Shown here: piece after piece, positions 27,698-48,357 of the stretch
How the letters are laid out: the number at the start of each line of letters is the position of its first letter
How positions within the stretch are numbered: position 1 is the stretch's first letter
Program-made: the position numbers and the translations under genes
Assembly (NCBI GenBank): GCA_963663475.2
Contig: CAXXJV010000001.1
Coordinates: 1,088,001-1,152,000 of the forward strand
DNA from: Candidatus Cloacimonadales bacterium
Lineage (GTDB): Bacteria; Cloacimonadota; Cloacimonadia; Cloacimonadales; JAFGVF01
DNA: 64,000 nt
Direction of reading: 5' to 3'
Notes under the pieces: generated by a model
Seen by the model: only the letters and a program-made list of their open reading frames with translations
Told to the model about the DNA's origin: nothing
Database searches by the model: none

Positions 27698-28596
27698 GGC
27701 ATACCCCCATTTTTTTTAAGAAAAATTGATCCTCAGCTGTAACTTGTCATGATATTCACCTTTGCAGGGTAAAATCTTGTTAAGTTTTGTATTGCTGAAT
27801 ATATGTTTTATGACTCTGCTAAGCTTATAATATACATATTTATATGTCTGTTCTTTTAAATTTCCAAATTCTGGGTATAAGTATAGTAGTTGATCTAAAT
27901 ATTTTATAGCAGAGTATATTATATCAACTGCGACCATCAGGATTGTATTTAAATTTTTTAATCCTACATAACTCATTAACTGGATATTTTCCTAGTTAAA
28001 CTCTTGTTTTACATGTCTATGAAATTCCTCAATTTTCCATCTGTACCCATATCTTCTTAATGCTTTTTCAATTATCTCATAGTCTGTTAAGTCTTTGGTA
28101 TTAAAGTTACATAGCAAATAGAATAAACCCCCTTTTTTACCATGTCGAGCAACTACTAGATGAGTCTCTACTGTATCTGACTTTTTAGTTTTATGAGGAT
28201 TTGTTCTTATTTTTACCCTTTTAACTCCACACATATAAATCTTATTTTTGGAAGTTTTAAACTTGTGTTTTCTCTTTGCAATTTTATTATATTCTTTTTT
28301 TTTAATCCATTGTTTAAAGTGCTCCTTTTGTTTTTATTTTTGGATAATCTAATTATATTTAGGGGCACTTTTTAGCAATATTTTTTTTAGTTATTTTATT
28401 ATATATCATTTACTTACAATTCATTAAAAAGTGGCTTAATATTAGAGCCGTGTGGCTTGTTTAATTAAAATTTTAACTAAAAAGTGGTTTTAATATAGAT
28501 GTCTCTCAAAACTGCTTAAACTTGACATTAATCAACTTTAAACAGTTATTATAATGCATCTTCAGATAGATGTTTGCAGTTTTTTGGGGGTATGCC
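27698..28596 (-). mobile_element. Decayed, internally deleted IS4-superfamily insertion sequence
   Basis: Terminal IRs GGCATACCCCCA (27698..27709) and TGGGGGTATGCC (28585..28596) enclose a transposase remnant. Confidence 0.75.
27716..28370 (-). pseudogene. Transposase pseudogene (DDE, C-terminal part)
   Basis: YGYRWKIEEFHRHVKQ matches the Y-2-R-3-E-6-K signature. An in-frame TAG at 27992..27994 splits two same-frame ORFs, and the N-terminal half is missing. Confidence 0.8.
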
Positions 28597-28674
28597 TGCA
28601 AAAGAAATATTTCTCTTGACATATTTCTTTCCCTTTCAATAATTAGGTAAATAAAAATATAAAGAAGGTGTAAG

Positions 28675-29148
28675 ATGAAAAAGATTCTTATTTTTGTTGT
28701 AGCAGTTTTATTTACATTAACTATAAATGCAAATCCAGATACTAATAATGAGTTTACAGGCTCTTTAACTATTCTCACTCAATATATGGATGGTTATCAT
28801 AATGTCCAATTAAAATGGGAAGATAACTCAGTTTCTAACGACTATTATGCTTATATCATCACAGAAGGTAACTCTGATAATGAAGAGAATCATGTTGTAA
28901 AGGGTTATACTAGAAGCAATTCTTTTGCTATCTTTAATGTACCTAACCTAGCCAACATCTCACCTCAATATAATGTTTATAAAATGAACTTTAATCAAGA
29001 GGTTCAACTAGATGACATTATTACAAATGATAGTGATAATCAATTTAGAGTAGCACTTACTTGGTCTCAAATCAAAGAACTTCTTAAGAAGAAAAGTAAC
29101 AATATCTGGAAGATTAGAAGAAATAATATTCCTACAAGTATGCAATAA
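28675..29148 (+). CDS. Secreted hypothetical protein
   Basis: Signal peptide (INA), AAGG RBS, upstream TTGACA, downstream terminator. Confidence 0.7.
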   Translation: MKKILIFVVAVLFTLTINANPDTNNEFTGSLTILTQYMDGYHNVQLKWEDNSVSNDYYAYIITEGNSDNEENHVVKGYTRSNSFAIFNVPNLANISPQYNVYKMNFNQEVQLDDIITNDSDNQFRVALTWSQIKELLKKKSNNIWKIRRNNIPTSMQ

Positions 29149-29170
29149 ATTATTGCCTTAAATAAATTTT

Positions 29171-29198
29171 AGGAGGCTGGAAACAGTCTCTTTTTTTT
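29171..29198 (+). terminator. Intrinsic terminator
   Basis: GGAGGCTG-GAAA-CAGTCTCT followed by a T-tract. Confidence 0.8.
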
Positions 29199-29285
29199 AT
29201 TGTCTTAAATATGGAGAAACTTGACCTTAGCACCAATGGAGTAATTCTCAGAGACTAATTTCTTAAGTTGTTAATGTAGTGCTTT

Positions 29286-29450
29286 AACCCAAATAATGCA
29301 GTAGACCTTTGTGAATAGCACTATATTCTTCTGCAAAAGTAACTTCCATAATTTCTCCGAATATATAAAATATATGCGTCAAAATTCTGTAAGCTATTTT
29401 GCTAGAATAATCTGCACTCTTCACTAAAGCTCTACTACACTATCTGGTTT
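29286..29450 (+). mobile_element. MITE-like repeat family A, full copy
   Basis: Near-identical to 54213..54377. Confidence 0.8.
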
Positions 29451-29634
29451 AACCCAAATAATGCAGTAGATCTTTGTGAATTTACTTGTAGCATCCTTAT
29501 TCCTTCCTTTACACTCTTTCGATGAAACCTGGACTTTCATCGAAAGAGTGTAAAGGAAGGAATAAGGATGAAAGGAGAAAAAAGTTGGTTTTCCAAATAG
29601 TACTTTCTCTAAATCCTACTACACCATTCGGGTT
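29451..29634 (+). mobile_element. Family A termini enclosing a different core with a 36-bp-arm perfect palindrome
   Basis: AACCCAAATAATGCAGTAGATCTTTGTGAAT ... CTAAATCCTACTACACCATTCGGGTT; palindrome at 29492..29570. Confidence 0.75.
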
Positions 29635-29708
29635 AAAAGAGAAGAAGAAAAAGCTCCAAGTGTCTAAAAAAATCAACACTCAGAGCTTAGAAAGGTTTGT
29701 AAATTAGC

Positions 29709-31022
29709 TTATTGTTTAGCGTACTTTTCTTGATTATCAATGAGAGCTTGTACAGGCTTCATTCCAAATGGAGAACCTTGTTCAATAGAGTTAAGAACAG
29801 CTCCACCACCAGTAAAGAAGTAGTAGTCATCTCGTTCGATAGCTTTTAAGTAAGTTTCATAAGCAACAGCTTTAAATTCTTGGAGAGTATCACCGCCACC
29901 AAACATTTTCATAGCAGCTTCATTCTTTGAGATAATATCATAGAGGTCTTTAGTTCCTTCGCTAAAGTGAGGAGCAAAACCCATAACTGCGTTACAGAAG
30001 AACATATTAGCTCGGGAGAAAATTTCTTTGATATGGCGTAAAGACCAAGTTTCCCAAGATACATCTAAGATATAATTTAGTTCTGTGCCTGGTTTTAAAT
30101 CATAAATAAAATGAGTACGGTATTTACCAGGTATCTTTTCACCTAAAACATCTGATTCCACGATATAAGGTAATTCCACAATTCTTTGAGGGAATTCATT
30201 TGCTTTTTCTAAGAAAACACGGGCGTGCTCAAGGTCTTTTTCAGTAATACCTTTTATTTTAAGGTCATATTTAACTGCCAAGTAGGCATTATAGATAACA
30301 CCACCCAATACCAAATAATCAACATGTTCTAGAAGATTATTTAAAGGTTTGATCTTTGTATCAAATTTAGAACCAGCGACTATACCTACGAAAGGTCTGC
30401 GAGGTTTGAATACTTGCTTAAGATGGGTAATCTCTTTTTGCATTAAAATTCCAGAGTAGGAAGGCATATAGTAGGTTGGCTTCATAGTAGAAGTATGTGG
30501 CTGCCAAGAACCAAAAGCATCATTAACAAAGACATCTGCGATATTAGCTAAGGCCTTACCTAAATCATCAGAATCTCCATTCATAGACTCTTCACCTCTA
30601 AACCATCTTGTATTAGGAAGATAAATCATGTCAATTTTATTATTTCTTAAGTCCTCTATGAGAGAGTATATTGATTCATCTTCAACCTCAATCCCGTTAT
30701 CCTCACGTTTATACCATTTAGGAATCTCAATATTTAACGATAACTTTGATTTCATATAATCTACAATTGGGGTAACTGAATCATCATCAGAAATAACTAT
30801 CTCTCCAGTTTTTTTATCTACTGGGCGACCATTGTGTGTCATTAAAATTAATTTCCCACCACGCAAGGCAATGTTTAATAAGGTAGGAACTGTAGCATCA
30901 ATACGTTCTGTGTCTTTTATTACACCATTTTTTACAACGTTATGGTCAACTCTTACTAAGACAATCTTGTCTTTTAAATCCGCATCTTGAATTCTTGGTA
31001 AATTACGATTTAACATCTTCAC
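29709..31022 (-). CDS. pgk: Phosphoglycerate kinase (divergent)
   Basis: VLVRVDHNV, THNGRP, PNTRW, FVNDAFG, AGSK, GGGDT, TGGGA. Confidence 0.88.
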   Translation of the reverse strand: MKMLNRNLPRIQDADLKDKIVLVRVDHNVVKNGVIKDTERIDATVPTLLNIALRGGKLILMTHNGRPVDKKTGEIVISDDDSVTPIVDYMKSKLSLNIEIPKWYKREDNGIEVEDESIYSLIEDLRNNKIDMIYLPNTRWFRGEESMNGDSDDLGKALANIADVFVNDAFGSWQPHTSTMKPTYYMPSYSGILMQKEITHLKQVFKPRRPFVGIVAGSKFDTKIKPLNNLLEHVDYLVLGGVIYNAYLAVKYDLKIKGITEKDLEHARVFLEKANEFPQRIVELPYIVESDVLGEKIPGKYRTHFIYDLKPGTELNYILDVSWETWSLRHIKEIFSRANMFFCNAVMGFAPHFSEGTKDLYDIISKNEAAMKMFGGGDTLQEFKAVAYETYLKAIERDDYYFFTGGGAVLNSIEQGSPFGMKPVQALIDNQEKYAKQ

Positions 31023-31519
31023 TCCCAGATATGTTCTTTATATAACCAAATAAAAGTATTTGATTAAAGTAGGCAAGTTTTTTTTTAAATTCAAGACTCT
31101 ATCTCGGACAGAAAGAATAAGCAATTTATTGATACTTAGAGGATGAAAGCGGAGTGAAATTGTGGAGAATGGATAAAACTTTAAAAGCAGATTTCTTGTC
31201 CTGCCTCCTGGAGGCTGTGGGATGAATTTCGAACTTCTTAGATCTAGTAAAAAAGCTAGTAAAAAATTCCCTAATTGTATTATTATTTAATGTAACTATT
31301 TATAGATAATATGTTTACAGAACATTCCACTCCTACACTACGATTAAAAGTTTGTTAGCAATAATTATTAATTTGAAATAATGGTTATTAAAAAAATAAA
31401 AAAATTGACAAAAAATGTATCAATAAATTATTAGAAGTAATTAATTATACTTACATAGAGAGGTATAGAAATATATAGGGATGTAATGAGAAATTAATAC
31501 TTTGGATGAATTAGGAGCT

Positions 31520-32058
31520 TAAAATTGAGGATTTGTCGATACTTTATTAAAATAGTAATGAACCTACTTTATCAAAAAGATTAAGAGGAGAATTACAATT
31601 ATTTTTTTTCGGGAAGTGACTTTTCAATTATAGCTAATGAAAAATGGATTAATCATCAAGGGAATTTATTTAGACTAAGAGAGGAAGAAAAAATTGATAG
31701 AAATCTTTAGGACTTAGTTAAACATATCAATGGTGATAAATTAAAATTATCAAAACTCGGAGATATAAATTTACATATAAAGTACAGATTTGTACTTTAT
31801 ACTAATAGATGGTGTCATAATGATACTTATCAAAATGAAAGAACGTTCGAAGGCTGGACTGTTTACTTCAATTTTAATCAAGATAATATTAAATATCCTG
31901 CTCAAGTATTTGATGCTTTTGAGTATCTTTGGAACATTTCAAACGATGAAAAGATGTCTGCAAAAGACCTCCAATCTTATATAAATAAATTGACAGACTG
32001 GATTAATATAACCGAACAGAACTTCCCACCTTTCTTATCAAAAAATAATCTTATGTAG
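31520..32058 (+). pseudogene. Degraded gene of unknown function
   Basis: Protein-like frame (...YTNRWCHNDTY...RTFEGW...IKYP...FEYLW...LQSYINKLTDWINITE..FP) ending at TAG 32058, broken upstream by in-frame stops and a frameshift. Confidence 0.5.
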
Positions 32059-38202: not shown

Positions 38203-38817
38203 ATGGCAAACAAAGAAATTTTCTTTAAGTATCTTGAAGATAACTTTCCAGAAAGATCTCTTGCTTTAAAGGCTAAATTTGAAGAATACTATCATGTTTT
38301 AGTTGAAGCTAATTCCAAGATAAATCTCTTTTCCAGAAAAATGCCCTTAGAAGAGATATGGACAACCCATTTCTATGATTCTCTTTTGCCTTATAAGTTA
38401 ATTGATTCTAGTAAAAAGAGACTTTTAGATTTTGGTACCGGTGGTGGTTTACCTGGTATTCCAATGGCTATTATCTACCCTCAAATGCAGGTTAATCTCT
38501 TAGATGGAACTAAGAAAAAGATCATGGTGATTAATGAGATGATAGAAATTCTTGATTTACCTAATGTTGGGACTATTTGGTCTCGGATTGAGGATTATAA
38601 TACAATTAATAAGTATGACTACATAATCTGTCGTTCAGTTAAAATTACTCCTCAGTTTAAACAACCCCTACTAAATGTACTTTCTCCCAAAGGTAAGATA
38701 ATTCTCTATAAGAGTAAAATCCTGGATGATGTAGTCCAGTTTGATAAATATAAGATACATAACTACAGTAATGAAATTTTAGGAACTAGAAATATAGTAG
38801 AGATAAATTATGAGTAG
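38203..38817 (+). CDS. rsmG: 16S rRNA (guanine527-N7)-methyltransferase
   Basis: NL.S, HFYDS, DFGTGGGLPGIP, LLDG..KK, RIE. Confidence 0.93.
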   Translation: MANKEIFFKYLEDNFPERSLALKAKFEEYYHVLVEANSKINLFSRKMPLEEIWTTHFYDSLLPYKLIDSSKKRLLDFGTGGGLPGIPMAIIYPQMQVNLLDGTKKKIMVINEMIEILDLPNVGTIWSRIEDYNTINKYDYIICRSVKITPQFKQPLLNVLSPKGKIILYKSKILDDVVQFDKYKIHNYSNEILGTRNIVEINYE

Positions 38818-39568
38818 AATAATTTCAATAGTAAATCAAAAGGGTGGTGTAGGTAAGACCACAACAGCTATGAACTTAGCTGCAGGCTTGGCTGTTATGG
38901 AGAAGAAGACTCTCCTGATAGATTTAGATCCCCAAGGTAACTCATCTAGTGGCTTAGGTATTGATAAGAATGAAATTGAAAAACATGTATATCATGTGAT
39001 TATTGGTAAGATAGATATTTCTGAGACAATTATGCCAACTTCAATGGATAACTTAGATATTGTACCTGCAAATATTAATTTAACTGGGGCTGAAATTGAG
39101 CTTGTTAAAGAATTTGCCAGAGAACAAAAACTCAAAGAAGCTCTTAAATCTATCTCAAATAACTATGAATTTATTATTATAGACTGTCCTCCTTCTTTAG
39201 GTCTTCTCTCAGTAAATGCTCTTACTGCTTGTACTGATGTTATCATTCCTATCCAGTGTGAATATTTTGCCTTGGAAGGGGTAAGTCAACTCTTAAATAC
39301 TATCAGACTTATTCAGCAGAATCTAAATCCCAAACTCAATGTTTTTGGCATTCTGCTTACGATGTATGATAAAAGACTTAACTTAGCTAATCAAGTAGTA
39401 TCCGAAGTAAAACGTTATTTCAAAGAACAAGTCTTTGAAACTATGATAAATAGAAATGTAAAACTTAGTGAAGCTCCTTCTTATGGGAAATCTATCTTTG
39501 AATATGATATCAAATCTGTAGGTTCCCAAAATTATCTTGAGTTAGCTTCCGAGGTGGTGAATAAATGA
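38810..39568 (+). CDS. parA: Chromosome partitioning ATPase ParA/Soj
   Basis: NQKGGVGKTTT, DLDPQGN, IDCPPSLG, QCEYFALEG, EAPSYG. Confidence 0.95.
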   Translation: MSRIISIVNQKGGVGKTTTAMNLAAGLAVMEKKTLLIDLDPQGNSSSGLGIDKNEIEKHVYHVIIGKIDISETIMPTSMDNLDIVPANINLTGAEIELVKEFAREQKLKEALKSISNNYEFIIIDCPPSLGLLSVNALTACTDVIIPIQCEYFALEGVSQLLNTIRLIQQNLNPKLNVFGILLTMYDKRLNLANQVVSEVKRYFKEQVFETMINRNVKLSEAPSYGKSIFEYDIKSVGSQNYLELASEVVNK

Positions 39569-40413
39569 GTTTTGAATTAGGCCGTGGATTAGATTCCTTA
39601 ATTTCTAAATTACCTGAATCAACTAATAATGAAACAGGGATAACAACTGTCAAAATAGACTATATTCATCCCAATAAACTCCAACCCAGAAAGCTATTTG
39701 ATCAAGAAAAGCTTGAAGAATTAGCCAATTCAATTAAAGAAAATGGTATAATTCAACCAATAATAGTTACTAAAAGAATGGATGAAGACGGCTATGAATT
39801 AGTTGCTGGAGAAAGACGTTTGGAGGCTTCTAAATTAGCAGGCTTTGATGAGATACCAGTGATTATTCGGTCGATTTCTCCCAAAGAAAAGCTCCTCTAT
39901 GCTATCATAGAAAATGTTCAAAGAGAAGACTTAAATGCCATTGAAGAAGCTTTAGCTTATAATCAGTTGATAGATGATTTTGGTATGTCTCAGGCCCAGG
40001 TAGCTGAAATGATGGGTAAAGATCGTTCTACAATTACTAACACCCTTAGAATGCTTAAGCTTGCCCCACCTGTCCAAAAACTCCTTCTAAATAATGATAT
40101 ATCAGCAGGTCATTGTCGGGCTATTTTACAAGTAGCTCAAGCTGAACAAGAAGATTTTGCCAATATGATCCTGAAAAACTCCTTATCAGTTAGAAAGGCA
40201 GAAGAATTGGCTAAAAATTGGCAAGGAAAAGCTAAGAAAAAACAAGCTGCATTTCAACGGAGAAAAGATGTAGAGGGTATTTTAAAAAATCAACTCAATC
40301 TTAAAATTAAAGTTGAAGAAAAGAATGGTAAGGGTAAGATTGTGATAAATTATTCTAACCAAGAAGAATTAAATAAATTACTTAAATCACTTGAAAGAAA
40401 ACAGCATGTTTAA
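39565..40413 (+). CDS. parB: Chromosome partitioning protein ParB
   Basis: LGRGL, QPRK.F, GIIQPI, AGERR, ENVQREDLN.IEEA, HTH GKDRST. Confidence 0.95.
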   Translation: MSFELGRGLDSLISKLPESTNNETGITTVKIDYIHPNKLQPRKLFDQEKLEELANSIKENGIIQPIIVTKRMDEDGYELVAGERRLEASKLAGFDEIPVIIRSISPKEKLLYAIIENVQREDLNAIEEALAYNQLIDDFGMSQAQVAEMMGKDRSTITNTLRMLKLAPPVQKLLLNNDISAGHCRAILQVAQAEQEDFANMILKNSLSVRKAEELAKNWQGKAKKKQAAFQRRKDVEGILKNQLNLKIKVEEKNGKGKIVINYSNQEELNKLLKSLERKQHV

Positions 40414-40639
40414 AAAGTATGAGGGATTTGACCCAAGTTTACTTAAATATCTCAGTCTAATCACCCAGCTGGGACTTTCAATGATTAGTTCAATCGTTAT
40501 TTTTTTATTGATTGGCCGTTGGCTTGATTCCTTACTTGAAACTGAAAATGTATTTTTAATTACAGGTATTATATTAGGTATCCTTAGTGGTATCTTATCA
40601 AATTACATGCTTTTAAAGAAATTTTATGGAAATCAATAA
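40406..40639 (+). CDS. atpZ: AtpZ/AtpI-family ATP synthase accessory protein
   Basis: Two TM segments, G.WLD motif, first gene of the atp cluster, overlaps the parB stop. Confidence 0.8.
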   Translation: MFKKYEGFDPSLLKYLSLITQLGLSMISSIVIFLLIGRWLDSLLETENVFLITGIILGILSGILSNYMLLKKFYGNQ

Positions 40640-41012
40640 ATATATTCTTAGAATTATTAGAATAATTATCTTGACAAATATACCCCTTGTTATATCGATA
40701 TTTATATCTAATAAAGAGTGGGTCAGCTTTAGTTATATTTTAGGTTCAATAGCTAGTGCGGGGAATTTTATCTGGCATAGCTTTGTTGTGCGAAATGCAC
40801 TATCAATGAACGAGAATGCAACTAAACTGCGGGTGGTTAAAGGCTTTTATTTACGCTATGTCGTATTTGTGCTTTATGCCTTTATCATAGCTTTTTTATT
40901 CAGAAATCAGATTGATATTATCTGGTTTGGATTTGGATTATTATCTGCCCAAATCTCTATCTATTTAGATACGATTTGGACTTTAATAAAAAAATACTTA
41001 AGAATCGAGTAA
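40626..41012 (+). CDS. atpI: ATP synthase protein I
   Basis: Four TM segments, N.., ..LRY motif, located before atpB. Confidence 0.75.
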   Translation: MEINKYILRIIRIIILTNIPLVISIFISNKEWVSFSYILGSIASAGNFIWHSFVVRNALSMNENATKLRVVKGFYLRYVVFVLYAFIIAFLFRNQIDIIWFGFGLLSAQISIYLDTIWTLIKKYLRIE

Positions 41013-41015
41013 ACT

Positions 41016-42023
41016 ATGACAAAAAAGAAAATTATTTTAATTGCTTTAGGCATTGTCTTTGTTGTTGAACTTGTTCTATCATTCTATCTAAACTTCAGTA
41101 TAAACTTAGGTACTAACCCTGAAACAGGTAAGTTCGGTATTTATGTTACTGAAGAAGTGGTAGCAATGCAGGATAAAATCAATGAAGAGACTCAACCTGA
41201 TCAGCATTTAATGGATTCTCAAGTAGTAACCAAGTATAAGACTGATAATCCAGACTGGACTATCGCTAATGTTATTGAAAATATTGAATCAAGCCAGGCT
41301 GAGGAAGATTTAGAACACATCAAGGAATATTTACCTTGGGGATCTACTTCCATCTATCTCTTCTTCCATAAATTTCTGGGTGATTCTGCAACTATAAGTG
41401 CAATTCGTATGATTCGCATGATGTTTATAGTTGATCTAATTTTGATAATCTTAGCCTTAATGGTCCGTCGTAAAATTCAGTTTAAACCTGGTAAGCTACA
41501 AGTCGCAACAGAGTGGATTTACGATTCTTTTGAAGGTTTAGTTGGTGAATCCTTAGGGAAGAATAACAAACACTTTACGCCTTATCTCTTAACACTATTC
41601 CTCTTTATCTGGATTAGTAATATGATAGGCTTAATTCCTATTCCAGGAATAAGTGAGCCAACTAGGAATTTGAATGTCACAATCGGTCTTGGTATCATTG
41701 CCATTATAGTCGTACAATACAACGCCATTAAAAAGAAAGGGTTATGGACTCATCTAAAGAGTTTTGCTGAACCTATGTTCTTCTTGGCCCCCCTTAACAT
41801 CATTGGTGAACTTTCCAAAGTAGTTTCCATTGCCTTCCGTCTTTTCGGTAATATAATGGGTGGGGCAATTATTATCTTAGTGGTGTCTGAATTAGTCAAA
41901 TATATCATGGTGCCAATTGTTTTATCAGGCTTCTTTGGACTCTTTGCTGGGTCTGTGCAAGCATTTGTTTTCACAATGTTAGCTATGAGTTACTTGGCAG
42001 TAGAAATTAATTCAGAAGAGTAG
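41016..42023 (+). CDS. atpB: Fo subunit a with N-terminal extension
   Basis: PGKLQ, N.IGLIP, PT.NLN, PLNIIGE, RLFGN, QAFVF.ML. Confidence 0.93.
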   Translation: MTKKKIILIALGIVFVVELVLSFYLNFSINLGTNPETGKFGIYVTEEVVAMQDKINEETQPDQHLMDSQVVTKYKTDNPDWTIANVIENIESSQAEEDLEHIKEYLPWGSTSIYLFFHKFLGDSATISAIRMIRMMFIVDLILIILALMVRRKIQFKPGKLQVATEWIYDSFEGLVGESLGKNNKHFTPYLLTLFLFIWISNMIGLIPIPGISEPTRNLNVTIGLGIIAIIVVQYNAIKKKGLWTHLKSFAEPMFFLAPLNIIGELSKVVSIAFRLFGNIMGGAIIILVVSELVKYIMVPIVLSGFFGLFAGSVQAFVFTMLAMSYLAVEINSEE

Positions 42024-42031
42024 GAGGAAAA

Positions 42032-42784
42032 ATGATACAAACAGATAGTTTTTTACTAATCAGTGCCTATTTAGGTGCTGCATTAAGTACAGGATTAGCT
42101 TCCATTAGTGCTGGTATAGGTGAGGGATATGCTGCTGGAGAAGCAGCTAAAGCTCTTGCTAAGCAACCAAAAGCAGGAGATGGACTCTTAAGAACTATGC
42201 TAATTAGTCAAGCTGTTACAGAAACAGGGGCTATTTTTGGTTTAGTTATCTCACTTCTTCTCATTTTTGGTGGAGCAGGCCATATTGCTGGTTCCTGGTT
42301 CAAGGTAGGTGCACTTTTAGCATCTGGTTTGGCAATGGGACTAGGCTCAATAGGTCCTGGTTTTGGTGCTGGCTATACTGGTGGACAGGCCTGTAGTGTG
42401 ATTTCCAGACTTCCAAAAGAATCAAACAGAGTAACCACAAATATGTTAATAGGTCAAGCTTTGGCACAAACTGATGCAATCTTTGCCTTAGTAGTTGCCT
42501 TACTTCTATTATACAGTGTTCCTAATCCAACAGCTTCCACAGGTCTTGGTCATTTTGTTGTGAAGATATCTGCCTTTCTCGGAGCTTCATTAGCAATAGG
42601 ACTAGGTACTTTAGGACCTGGAATGGGAATAGGATTCGTAACAGGCCGAGCCTCTAACATGTTGGGACGTTTTCCTCGAGAAAGGGGAGCAATTTCCAGA
42701 ACAATGTTCTTAGGTGCAGCTGTTTCAGAATCAACTGCTATCTACGCTCTTGTAATAGCATTCTTGTTAATTTTCTTCTCATAA
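42032..42784 (+). CDS. atpE: Fo subunit c, fused three-hairpin form
   Basis: Three c repeats with loops KQP, RLP, RFP and outer helices QAVTETGAIF, QALAQTDAIF, AAVSESTAIY. Confidence 0.9.
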   Translation: MIQTDSFLLISAYLGAALSTGLASISAGIGEGYAAGEAAKALAKQPKAGDGLLRTMLISQAVTETGAIFGLVISLLLIFGGAGHIAGSWFKVGALLASGLAMGLGSIGPGFGAGYTGGQACSVISRLPKESNRVTTNMLIGQALAQTDAIFALVVALLLLYSVPNPTASTGLGHFVVKISAFLGASLAIGLGTLGPGMGIGFVTGRASNMLGRFPRERGAISRTMFLGAAVSESTAIYALVIAFLLIFFS

Positions 42785-42834
42785 TGAGAATACAAATATA
42801 AAAATAAAAAAATAAAAAATCCGTTGGAGGAATA

Positions 42835-43080
42835 ATGGATCTTAATCAAGCAATAGTAAAGGCTGCAGCTTTATTAGGCGCAGGAATCGCAATGGGAATT
42901 GGTGCTTTAGGACCAGGATTAGGTGAAGGTTTCACAGCAGGAAAAGCATGTGAAGGTATAGCAAGAACTCCAGAAAACGCAGGTTTAATTACCAGAACAA
43001 TGCTTATCGGTCAGGCTGTGTCTGAATCAACAGGTATTTACTCATTAGTGGTAGCATTATTATTAATATTTACTGCTTAA
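42835..43080 (+). CDS. atpE: Fo subunit c, single hairpin, Na+-type signature
   Basis: [22 protein letters not shown]. Confidence 0.95.
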
Positions 43081-43102: not shown

Positions 43103-43582
43103 ATGATTAGTATAGATGTCTCAATGGTAGTAGTTATTTTAAACTTCCTACTCTTAATGTTCATCTTAAAAATGGTATTATATAAACCAATTAAAGATAT
43201 GATTAATGAGAGAGAAAGTAAAGTTGCTGCTGATATTGATGATGCCAATAAATCTAAAGAAGAGGCTAAGAAATTAGTCTTAACCAAAGAAGAAGAGTAC
43301 AAAGAAGCTGTAGTAGAAGCGAGGAAACTACGTGATAAAATCAGAAAAGAAGCTGAATTTGATGCTGAGAAGATTATCCAGCAAGCTTATGAAAATCGCA
43401 AATCTATTGTAGCAGAGACTGAAGAACAGCTTGCCCATGAAAAGCAGAAAGTTCAGCAAAAACTTCAAGCTGAACTAGCTGGTCTTGTCTCACAACTAAC
43501 AGGAAAAGTTTTGGCTCAGAAGATAGATTCTGATAAAGATTTAGAGCTTATAAACTCTATAATTGATAGTCGGAGTGAATAA
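43103..43582 (+). CDS. atpF: Fo subunit b
   Basis: N-terminal TM (NFLLL..IL...LYKPI...ERE) followed by coiled coil. Confidence 0.92.
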   Translation: MISIDVSMVVVILNFLLLMFILKMVLYKPIKDMINERESKVAADIDDANKSKEEAKKLVLTKEEEYKEAVVEARKLRDKIRKEAEFDAEKIIQQAYENRKSIVAETEEQLAHEKQKVQQKLQAELAGLVSQLTGKVLAQKIDSDKDLELINSIIDSRSE

Positions 43583-44121
43583 TGAAAGATACTAAAACTG
43601 CAGAACGCTACGCTAATGGATTCTTGGCAGCATTTACTAGTAATGATTTGCCTAATTTATTAGAAGAAGTTAGGGTTCTTCAACAAGTATTAAGAGCTAA
43701 TTCAGACATTTCTCGAGTGCTCTCTTCCCATGTTATCAAAGAGAAGGATAAACTACATATTATTGAACCCTTCATAAAAGAATGCAAGCATGGTGATTAT
43801 TGGCAAAACCTAATTATGTTGCTCTCAGAAAAGAATAGATTAAATCTTTTTGATGATATAAACTATTTCTTAGAACAATATATTTTAGATGAATTAAATA
43901 TAGTGAAAATTACAATAAAAACTGCTCATGAACTCAAAGAGGATATGAAAAATAAGATGGTTAACTTCTTATCAGATAAAATTAAGAAGCAGGTTGAAGC
44001 ATCTTTTGTTACTGATCCCCAAGTTCTGGGTGGCTTTATTGCTGAATCAGATAACTTCATTGTCGATTCTTCAGTAAAACGAAGCTTAGAACAGTTCAGA
44101 CTAAGCTTAATTAAAATGTAA
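43582..44121 (+). CDS. atpH: F1 subunit delta
   Basis: AERYA, KNRL, DP.VLGG, DSSVK. Confidence 0.9.
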
Positions 44122-44131
44122 GGAATTAAAT

Positions 44132-45634
44132 ATGATAAGACCTGAAGAAATTAGTTCAATCATAAGAGATAGAATAAAGAAATTTACCTTAGATCAAGAT
44201 ATAGCTGAAACTGGAAAAGTTATTCAGGTTGGCGATGGTATTGCTCGTGTATATGGCTTAAAAAATGTTATGTACAACGAGATGTTGCTATTCCCTAATG
44301 ATGTTTTTGGTATGGCTCTTAACTTGGAAGAGGATAGCGTTGGTTGTGTTCTCTTTGGTGATACTACTAAAGTTAAAGAAGGCGACATTGCTAAAAGAAC
44401 TAAGAGAATCTTAGAAGTCCCTGTAGGTGAAGCTTTGCTAGGTAGAGTAGTTAACACTCTAGGTCAACCTTTAGATGGTAAAGGTGAAATTAAGCAAACT
44501 GAATTCTATGAAATGGAAAGAAAGGCTCTTGGGGTAATTGCTCGTCAGCCTGTTGTAGAACCACTTCAAACTGGTATCAAGGCTATTGACTCTATGATAC
44601 CTATTGGTAGGGGACAACGTGAATTAATTATTGGTGATAGACAGACTGGTAAAACTGCTATCGCCTTAGATACTATTATTAACCAAAAAGGTAAGGATGT
44701 TTTCTGTATCTATGTAGCAATAGGACAGAAAGAATCTTCAGTTGCTAAATTTGTCAGAACCCTAGAAGAATATGGTGCTATGGAATATACTACTATTGTT
44801 ATGGCTGGTTCAAGTGAACCTCCTTCAATGCAATACATGGCTCCTTATGCAGGTTGTTCAATTGGTGAATACTTTAGAGATAATGGCAAACATGCCTTAA
44901 TTATCTATGATGATCTTTCTAAGCATGCTGTTGCTTACCGTGAAATTTCCCTTCTTTTGAGAAGACCTCCAGGACGTGAAGCTTATCCTGGTGATGTTTT
45001 CTATCTTCACTCAAGATTGTTAGAAAGAGCTTCTAAGCTTAGTGATAAATTAGGAGGCGGTTCTTTAACAGCTTTACCAATTATCGAAACTAAAGCTGAA
45101 GATATCTCTGCTTATATTCCTACTAACGTGATTTCTATCACTGATGGACAAATCTATCTCTCAAGTAGATTATTCTATTCTGGTAGAAGACCTGCTATTA
45201 ATGCTGGTCTATCTGTTTCACGTGTGGGTGGCTCAGCTCAGATTAAAGCTATGAAACAAGTTGTTGGTCAGCTAAGATTCGCTCTAGCTCAATATACTGA
45301 GCTTGAATCATTTGCTAAATTTGGTTCAGACCTTGATAAAGCTACTCTAGCCCAGTTAAGAAGAGGACAGTCTATTGTGGAAATCCTTAAGCAAGGTCAG
45401 TTCTCTCCTCTATCAGTCCAACAGCAAATCATGATTATTTTTATGGCTAATGAAGGCTATTTAGATGAATTTGATGTTGAAAAGATAAGTGAAATTGAAA
45501 AAGAGCTTTATATTACTTTAGATACTGAGTTCAAAGACTTTACCAAAACACTTGCTGATGGTGCCTTAACAGATGACAAAAAAGCTAAGATGGCTGAAAT
45601 CTGTGAGCATGTAGCAGCTAAATTCAGATCTTAA
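44132..45634 (+). CDS. atpA: F1 subunit alpha
   Basis: [46 protein letters not shown]. Confidence 0.98.
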
Positions 45635-45647
45635 GTAGAAGGTTAAG

Positions 45648-48302
<2,655 letters not shown>

Positions 48303-48328: not shown

Positions 48329-48357
48329 AGCTCTCTACTTGGTAGGGAGCTTTTTTT
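48329..48357 (+). terminator. Intrinsic terminator of the atp operon
   Basis: AGCTCTCTAC-TTG-GTAGGGAGC followed by T7. Confidence 0.85.

Follow-up and report, generated by a model that had tools for sequence, protein, structure and literature searches.

A three-hairpin c subunit beside a Na+-type c in the F-type ATP synthase operon of Cloacimonadota suggests a mixed rotor

Introduction

How many ions a rotary ATP synthase spends per ATP is set by the count of ion sites in its c ring. In the textbook bacterial F-type rotor, a c subunit is one hairpin with one site; to our knowledge, the hybrid ring of Acetobacterium woodii, with 10 sites on 11 hairpins, is the single exception among bacterial F-type enzymes. 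Archaea and eukaryotic V-ATPases tune the ratio by fusing hairpins and losing sites. What rotor, then, is built from a bacterial F-type operon that encodes two c subunits side by side, a 250-residue protein of three fused hairpins (c3x) and an 81-residue single-hairpin protein (c81)? This operon lies in a 64,000-nucleotide stretch of a Candidatus Cloacimonadales genome (assembly GCA_963663475.2, contig CAXXJV010000001.1, positions 1,088,001 to 1,152,000 of the forward strand), which we call the window and in whose coordinates all positions are given. We propose that c3x and c81 probably share a single heteromeric c ring, coupled to Na+, in the only F1Fo ATP synthase that the cell has.

Results

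c3x is a fusion of three F-type c hairpins

A first-pass annotation of the window, made by reading the DNA, had described the 250-residue gene as three c hairpins and predicted that a profile scan would recover three ATP-synt_C domains. Both statements were borne out. Pfam ATP-synt_C (PF00137, cut-off 24 bits) matched c3x in three separate stretches (E 1.6e-43, 147.2 bits) and c81 once (E 5.1e-18, 65.5 bits), and TIGR01260 scored the two proteins at 107.5 and 65.0 bits, respectively (cut-off 43.95). Every c3x hairpin scores as an F-type c, and the best NCBIfam F0F1 model reached 156.5 bits versus 68.5 bits for the best V-type K model. The c genes and their parts are arranged as follows; the residues given are those at positions 32/65/66/67/70 in Ilyobacter tartaricus numbering.

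42032..42784, + strand: c3x, the 250-residue fused c subunit, with three ATP-synt_C stretches
42032..42283, + strand: c3x hairpin 1, residues 1-84; E31/E64/T65/G66/F69, loop K44-Q-P
42284..42535, + strand: c3x hairpin 2, residues 85-168; A113/Q146/T147/D148/F151, loop R126-L-P
42536..42784, + strand: c3x hairpin 3, residues 169-250 and stop codon; I200/E233/S234/T235/Y238, loop R213-F-P
42785..42834, + strand: A-rich spacer of 50 nucleotides between c3x and c81
42835..43080, + strand: c81, the single-hairpin c of 81 residues (Pfam E 5.1e-18); ion-site residues E31/E64/S65/T66/Y69, a two-carboxylate Na+ motif

These residues come from aligning the hairpins with c81 and with solved c chains from I. 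tartaricus (1yce), Fusobacterium nucleatum (3zk1) and A. woodii (4bem), and they agree exactly with those listed in the first-pass annotation. A carboxylate is present at the ion position of hairpin 1 (E64), hairpin 3 (E233) and c81 (E64) and absent from hairpin 2 (Q146), while the [RK]-x-P motif is retained in all three c3x loops. The c3x hairpins share 37-38% identity with one another; c81 is closest to hairpin 3 (52%) and aligns with the F. nucleatum chain 3zk1 at E 3.3e-22 and the I. tartaricus chain 1yce at E 9.1e-22.

Structure prediction with AlphaFold2 from a 125-sequence alignment gave three hairpins, forming six long helices, with a pLDDT of 93.1 and a pTM of 0.90. In a Foldseek search, the best solved match was the A. 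woodii c1 subunit (4bem_J; 163 columns, root-mean-square deviation 1.5, 38% identity, target-normalised template modelling (TM) score 0.83), and 2bl2_A matched two hairpins with a target-normalised TM score of 0.82. Among the Foldseek matches, no solved chain spans all three c3x hairpins, the top query-normalised TM score being 0.61. The sequence comparison points to the same relative: c1 aligns with c3x residues 17-164 at E 5.5e-27, placing its Gln hairpin on hairpin 2.

Two other family assignments were rejected. The N-ATPase c model (TIGR03322) gave 126.9 and 66.5 bits, below its cut-off of 130.85, and the operon has the canonical gene order including delta. An archaeal A-type or V-type K proteolipid is contradicted by the 68.5-bit score against a cut-off of 211, by the F-type operon and by the lack of any other rotary ATPase in the genome.

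Ion sites read by interface

According to PMC3692424, the Na+ ligands are Glu32 and Glu65 from one subunit and Ser66 O-gamma and Val63 O from its neighbour, with Thr67 holding a water ligand and Tyr70 giving a hydrogen bond to Glu65. For double-hairpin subunits, a preprint (10.64898/2026.10.01.756066) words the rule as Glu in hairpin 2 and [STQ][STQ]xxY in hairpin 1. We therefore read each c3x site across an interface, taking residues 32 and 65 from hairpin k and the 63 carbonyl and the 66/67/70 side chains from hairpin k-1.

Read in this manner, the hairpin-1 site (E31 and E64 with the Ser-Thr-Tyr of the preceding subunit) is predicted to have every ligand of the two-carboxylate Na+ site known from F. 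nucleatum. The hairpin-2 site (A113 and Q146 with T65/G66/F69) is predicted to be dead and ion-blind, and the degenerate state of hairpin 1's own 66/67/70 residues would follow from this loss. The predicted hairpin-3 site (I200 and E233 with T147/D148/F151) keeps its carboxylate without a position-32 ligand or Tyr70 and appears ligand-poor; it may bind H+, may bind Na+ weakly with the aid of D148, or may be permanently protonated. The Ser-Thr-Tyr of hairpin 3 would, in turn, complete the Na+ site of the single-hairpin c that follows. Sites had previously been judged hairpin by hairpin in the first-pass annotation; regrouping them by interface moves the complete Na+ site from hairpin 3 to hairpin 1.

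The residues are distributed by position in relatives as well. Among the first hairpins of 105 representatives with three to five hairpins, 96 bear a carboxylate, 76 have E or Q at position 32 and just 3 have Tyr70. Among their last hairpins, Tyr70 occurs in 96, 27 of these without their own carboxylate, and position 32 is E or Q in just 8. A species-genome scan with a five-hairpin alignment returned 353 relatives, of which the best 80 (L035-L114) supply the counts for what we call Desulfobacterota-type loci. Here, internal hairpins with Tyr70 precede a carboxylate hairpin in 30 of 30 cases, against 4 of 245 for internal hairpins without it, and the last hairpin carries S-T-Y in 80/80.

Conservation and site variation in the c3x family

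A word-indexed search with c3x retrieved 539 homologues at E <= 1e-5. Of the 120 matches listed, 115 are 242-257 residues long and 5 are 400-406, and the named homologues are Cloacimonadota or Cloacimonetes metagenome-assembled genomes (MAGs). Within the phylum, c3x and its single-hairpin partner recur in 79 of 151 sampled genomes and 13 of 15 family groups, a breadth that runs counter to the poor conservation named beforehand as a possible refutation. The families without a c3x match are one large (0/69) and one small (0/2), and with c3x as query the remaining 72 genomes returned no hit of any kind, and hence no F-type c that it can detect. A single-hairpin c with E-S-T-Y directly follows c3x in all 30 loci read, with E at position 32 in 29 and Q in 1.

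The frame is full-length and free of internal stops in 77 of the 79 carriers, at 45-98% identity. In the remaining two, the gene is broken by a contig end (G145) or takes a two-hairpin form (G081). The latter (L115:655-1140, - strand; also protein P0166) is a 161-residue c resembling hairpins 1 and 3 without the blind middle one, and a single-hairpin c comes after it. The second hairpin of this 161-residue form once more combines Ile32 with Glu65, behind a T/G/F hairpin. The form is either an ancestral state or a secondary deletion.

For pairs within genus and family, the ratio of nonsynonymous to synonymous substitution (dN/dS) is 0.02-0.07 over the whole gene and at most 0.10 per hairpin, bar one value of 0.16 in a near-identical pair, and hairpin 2, though ion-blind, is under constraint similar to that of the other two. 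These data bear on the possibility that the fusion is artefactual or the gene in decay, arising from an assembly error or from a read-through fusion of three tandem c genes. The 77 intact orthologues, the low dN/dS and the confident fold refute that reading, and a single contig of one DNA run spans the whole stretch; we give it practically no credence.

Site residues were counted in 116 proteins, namely the window c3x and the 115 three-hairpin proteins among the matches listed. At the ion position of hairpin 1 (E64), 72 proteins have E, 40 have Q and 4 have G, and the position-32 residue of this hairpin changes with it: E31 is always paired with E64 (61/61), and S31 is paired with Q64 in 40/42. 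In hairpin 2, the ion position is Gln in 115/116 and position 70 is Phe (F151) in 116/116. In hairpin 3, the ion position (E233) is E in 99 and Q in 17, and position 32 (I200) is I or V in 115/116 and never E or Q. By comparison, the hairpin-3 triad is nearly invariant, with S234 in 116/116, T235 in 113/116 and Y238 in 115/116. Carboxylates number three in 1 protein, two in 60 (the window type), one in 49 and none in 6. The S/T/Y of hairpin 3 is kept even in the 44 members whose hairpin 1 has no Glu and in the 6 carboxylate-free members.

D148 (window 42473-42475), at position 67 of hairpin 2, is Asp in 18/116 proteins, all 18 of which have E233. This residue may stand in for the lost position-32 ligand of the hairpin-3 site as a relocated second carboxylate.

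One mixed ring or separate rings

We propose that c3x would join c81 in one ring, as A. woodii c1 joins c2/c3. Each copy of c3x would bring three hairpins and only one or two translocating sites, and the Na+/ATP ratio would consequently drop below one third of the hairpin number. According to PMC3692424, all characterised Na+ F-type rings have 11 hairpins. An 11-hairpin ring with 1 c3x and 8 c would have 10 or 9 sites, or 3.3 or 3.0 Na+ per ATP; with 1, 2 or 3 copies of c3x, such a ring would hold 10, 9 or 8 sites if E233 is counted and 9, 7 or 5 if it is not. The earlier suggestion, that a heteromeric Na+ ring contains a six-helix subunit in which one or two sites work and that the ion/ATP ratio is thereby lowered, fits all of the comparative evidence, and we retain it as a prediction.

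The alternative is that the two genes make homomeric rotors, c3x-only or c81-only rings, perhaps depending on conditions and switching the cell between two ion/ATP ratios. In the source species, E31/E64 could be completed by the hairpin-3 S/T/Y of another c3x, and each c gene has its own strong ribosome-binding site (AGGAGG for c3x and GGAGG for c81, each 5 nucleotides 5' of the ATG). Yet the genes belong to one operon and stand 50 nucleotides apart, no terminator-like site lies between them, and promoter-like sites are not enriched (35 found versus 29.2 +/- 6.6 in shuffles). The family itself is harder to reconcile with separate rings: c3x is carboxylate-free in 6/116 members and has only the ligand-poor hairpin-3 Glu in 38/116, yet the gene and its S/T/Y are kept. 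Where hairpin 1 has no Glu or carboxylates are absent, the S/T/Y could therefore serve only the Glu of the single-hairpin c. In these relatives, a ring built from c3x alone would have no means of moving ions. The sole solved precedent, 4bem, is a mixed ring. Together, the S/T/Y argument, the invariable gene pairing and the A. woodii precedent favour a heteromeric ring, and we regard homomeric rotors as quite unlikely.

A further possibility is that c3x is mainly a structural or assembly part, acting in nucleation, ring size or an asymmetric contact with gamma/epsilon, with the change in ion/ATP ratio as a by-product. The family's tolerance for losing one, two or all three carboxylates (1/60/49/6 proteins with three/two/one/none) would suit such a role, as would the conservation of the glycine motifs, loops and S/T/Y and the presence of AtpI and AtpZ-like assembly genes alongside. 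A structural part would, however, also have to be incorporated into the ring, and this reading overlaps with the mixed ring to that extent. In addition, the stepwise series of three to six hairpins with one or two sites found elsewhere resembles tuning of the site count and not plain nucleation. We judge a mainly structural role unlikely, if a little less so than separate rings.

Several points weigh against the mixed Na+ ring of c3x and c81. Whether c3x enters the ring, in how many copies, which ion is coupled and how the hairpin-3 site behaves are all inferred. In the source species hairpin 1 is intact, and its own sequence permits a c3x-only ring. Hairpin 3 breaks the interface rule, its carboxylate standing behind a hairpin without Tyr70. 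The direction of that rule (k-1) leans in part on Enterococcus hirae NtpK, in which 63/66/67/70 come from the earlier hairpin and 32/65 from the later. When the 80 Desulfobacterota-type loci are placed on a tree, the link between Tyr70 and carboxylate reduces to 3-4 independent changes, and the tree contrasts (2 concordant, 0 opposite, 1 unchanged) are not significant (sign test p 0.5). Conservation of S/T/Y could have a structural cause apart from ion binding. Finally, short exact contigs, including one at 42039-42192, are present in metatranscriptome libraries, which is weak evidence of RNA, carried-over DNA being possible; the three metatranscriptome runs cover 7-17% of sampled words, in short contigs only.

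Coupling ion

Na+ coupling is likely for this enzyme, because the single-hairpin c and the predicted hairpin-1 site have the full Na+ ligand set, the genome encodes Na+ pumps (two Rnf/Nqr-type loci, a membrane pyrophosphatase and two Na+-decarboxylase beta subunits), and published Cloacimonadota genome analyses assume a Na+ F-type enzyme (as stated in PMC8542988).

An H+-coupled or mixed H+/Na+ enzyme would draw on the hairpin-3 site, in which Ile at position 32 and a Phe70 partner are the make-up typical of H+ sites. Mutants of Propionigenium modestum with Gln32 replaced reportedly lose Na+ binding and keep H+ binding, which counts in the same direction. Promiscuity is also possible in two-carboxylate sites, as discussed for Methanosarcina acetivorans in PMC3692424. 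Against this stand the full E/E/S/T/Y set of the single-hairpin c and the hairpin-1 site, which binds Na+ in the F. nucleatum structure (as described in PMC3692424), and the several Na+-type primary pumps encoded in the genome. We consider an enzyme that is H+-coupled or mixed, rather than Na+-coupled, very unlikely.

A wider family of multi-hairpin F-type c subunits

c3x belongs to a large family of F-type c subunits with three to six hairpins and is not peculiar to its source organism. An exhaustive profile-free search of 1.84 billion representatives yielded 1455 proteins at E <= 1e-3, 68 of them at E <= 1e-30, and the best 150 of the 1455 include proteins with 2, 3, 4, 5, 7, 9, 12 and 15 hairpins. 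One three-hairpin representative is named Margulisiibacteriota. Five c-like proteins (P0160, P0174, P0183, P0193 and P0261) have 524-1139 residues and 7-15 hairpins, mostly with Glu, some of them as near-identical repeats.

The Desulfobacterota-type loci come from Desulfobacterota and a few Bacteriovoracaceae MAGs. In 78 of these 80, a c subunit of four to six hairpins is followed by a single-hairpin c with E/E/S/T/Y. Their make-up, as fused hairpins plus single-hairpin c, is as follows.

4+1: 51 loci
5+1: 18 loci
6+1: 8 loci
4+1+1: 1 locus
5 alone (fused c only): 1 locus
4 alone (fused c only): 1 locus

The fused subunits mostly have 1-2 carboxylates and rarely 3. Cultured carriers include Desulfosarcina variabilis (L058), Desulfatibacillum alkenivorans DSM 16219 (L069) and Desulfocarbo indianensis (L071). 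The D. alkenivorans operon (L069:5557-9435) reads AtpZ, AtpI, a, a 325-residue c with four domains, an 82-residue c, b' and b. A tree of 119 hairpins built on 83 columns, with 61 of 116 inner branches unresolved, shows a tendency for hairpins to group by position, a hint that would suit convergence as well as common origin, and duplication as well as fusion.

It is possible, though we lean somewhat towards doubt, that these proteins make up a large undescribed class of bacterial F-type enzymes, in Cloacimonadota and Desulfobacterota, whose rings mix a normal c with blocks of three to six hairpins that carry 0-2 sites.

Operon and genomic setting

The gene order, AtpZ-like, AtpI, a, c (250 residues), c (81 residues), b, delta, alpha, gamma, beta and epsilon, is that of a complete canonical F-type operon. 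Apart from the c genes listed above, its features are these.

40391..40639, + strand: AtpZ-like small membrane protein (ATPase_gene1), which opens the operon; Pfam PF09527, E 1.9e-15
40626..41012, + strand: AtpI, assembly factor family; Pfam PF03899, E 6.5e-07
41016..42023, + strand: Fo subunit a, 335 residues; Pfam PF00119, E 1.1e-48
43103..43582, + strand: Fo subunit b; Pfam PF00430, E 1.6e-19
43582..44121, + strand: F1 subunit delta (OSCP); Pfam PF00213, E 4.3e-32
44132..45634, + strand: F1 subunit alpha; Pfam PF00006, PF00306 and PF02874
45648..46502, + strand: F1 subunit gamma; Pfam PF00231, E 2.4e-91
46517..47920, + strand: F1 subunit beta; Pfam PF00006 and PF02874
47907..48302, + strand: F1 subunit epsilon; Pfam PF02823 and PF00401
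48329..48351, + strand: terminator-like stem-loop of 10 pairs followed by a T run, directly 3' of the epsilon gene

In the site scan, the stem-loop at 48329-48351 was the sole noncoding terminator-like site on the + strand. The host genome measures 3.30 Mb in 2 contigs and is 99.2% complete. It holds four ATP-synt_C domains, every one inside the atp operon, which is therefore the genome's only rotary ATPase.

Residues 120-332 of subunit a align with subunit a of Bacillus PS3 (6n2d_a), with the Arg motif in register; the essential Arg lies within 'FRLFGNI'. The protein also has an N-terminal extension of about 119 residues (window 41016-41375), with one predicted membrane helix followed by an acidic soluble stretch. 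The extension has no counterpart in solved a subunits and is recognisable in 16 of 30 related loci.

Upstream of the operon (window 38203-40413) lie a putative RsmG-like open reading frame of 204 residues and ParA-like and ParB-like open reading frames. The cumulative GC skew has its minimum at about 30 kb (profile around 28000-32000), and with these putative neighbours the window may therefore adjoin the replication origin.

Discussion

The closest known system is the F/V-hybrid Na+ rotor of A. woodii and Clostridium aceticum (PDB 4BEM), in which c1 occurs with c2/c3. There, too, a multi-hairpin c directly precedes a single-hairpin c with a Na+ motif in an F-type operon, the Glu at the ion position of the first fused hairpin gives way to Gln in the second, and c1 is the closest solved relative of c3x by both sequence and fold. 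The differences are equally clear. A. woodii c1 has two hairpins in 182 residues, whereas c3x has three hairpins and six helices in 250 residues, and the extra third hairpin combines a Glu with Ile at position 32. Where A. woodii has Gln32 as its second ligand, Glu32 is found here, which makes the site of the two-carboxylate type. c3x is spread over a whole phylum unrelated to acetogens. The A. woodii ring consists of 9 single-hairpin c and 1 c1, with n = 3.3 (as reported in PMC9171764, PMC5662883 and PMC7911925).

For the single-hairpin partner, a known counterpart is the c subunit of F. nucleatum (3ZK1): c81 has the same E32/E65/S66/T67/Y70, and so, by the interface reading, would the hairpin-1 site. 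The F. nucleatum ring, however, is a homomeric c11 ring of single hairpins with no fused subunit (as described in PMC3692424).

Archaeal A-type proteolipids resemble c3x in joining several hairpins in one polypeptide with fewer carboxylates than hairpins. They are part of A1Ao enzymes, in contrast to c3x, which has F-type hairpins and an F-type operon with delta, gamma and epsilon. The Methanocaldococcus jannaschii proteolipid has three hairpins with the blind one first, unlike c3x, in which it is the middle one; Methanopyrus kandleri has 13. Archaeal c subunits with 1, 2, 3 or 13 hairpins are mentioned in PMC9171764.

E. hirae NtpK and eukaryotic V-ATPase c likewise have one site per more than one hairpin, and the fold of c3x matches NtpK over two hairpins (2bl2_A). 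In these proteins, the site is made by the Glu of the later hairpin and the Thr/Gln/Tyr of the earlier one. They are, however, V/A-type subunits of four helices, assembled into homomeric rings (NtpK) or rings of V-type paralogues.

The Desulfobacterota subunits with four to six hairpins share with the Cloacimonadota locus the order a, multi-hairpin c, single-hairpin c with E/E/S/T/Y, b. They also share a first hairpin with E32/E65, internal Gln and a last hairpin with S-T-Y, and their hairpins group by position in a weakly supported tree. They differ in the last hairpin: where its Glu is retained, it comes with Glu32 and behind a Tyr70 hairpin, a canonical arrangement, while hairpin 3 of Cloacimonadota is not canonical.

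The first-pass annotation knew of no characterised bacterial F-type example, and a full-text search, with the A. woodii structure paper and a 2015 hybrid-rotor review outside its scope, likewise found no description of a bacterial F-type c with more than two hairpins. The c3x design would extend the single known bacterial hybrid rotor, that of A. woodii. For annotation, the interface reading offers a simple rule for fused c subunits, with 32/65 taken from hairpin k and 66/67/70 from k-1. The rotor question is directly testable, because there are carriers in culture and, according to PMC9171764, E. coli has served as a host for expressing the A. woodii operon.

Fusion and site loss in bacteria appear to be separate in origin from the archaeal and V-ATPase case. 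If the wider class of mixed rotors is real, Na+/ATP ratios would fall below 3.3, lower than in any measured F-type enzyme and possibly to about 2 for the six-hairpin forms, and such rotors would have to turn through long ion-blind arcs. The Cloacimonadota ring may then hold two kinds of site, one of them an H+-type pocket with Ile32, Phe70 and sometimes Asp67, and so form a mixed Na+/H+ rotor. A three-hairpin c found across a phylum, together with relatives of four to six hairpins in sulfate reducers, would show that bacterial F-type enzymes tune their ion/ATP ratio in larger steps.

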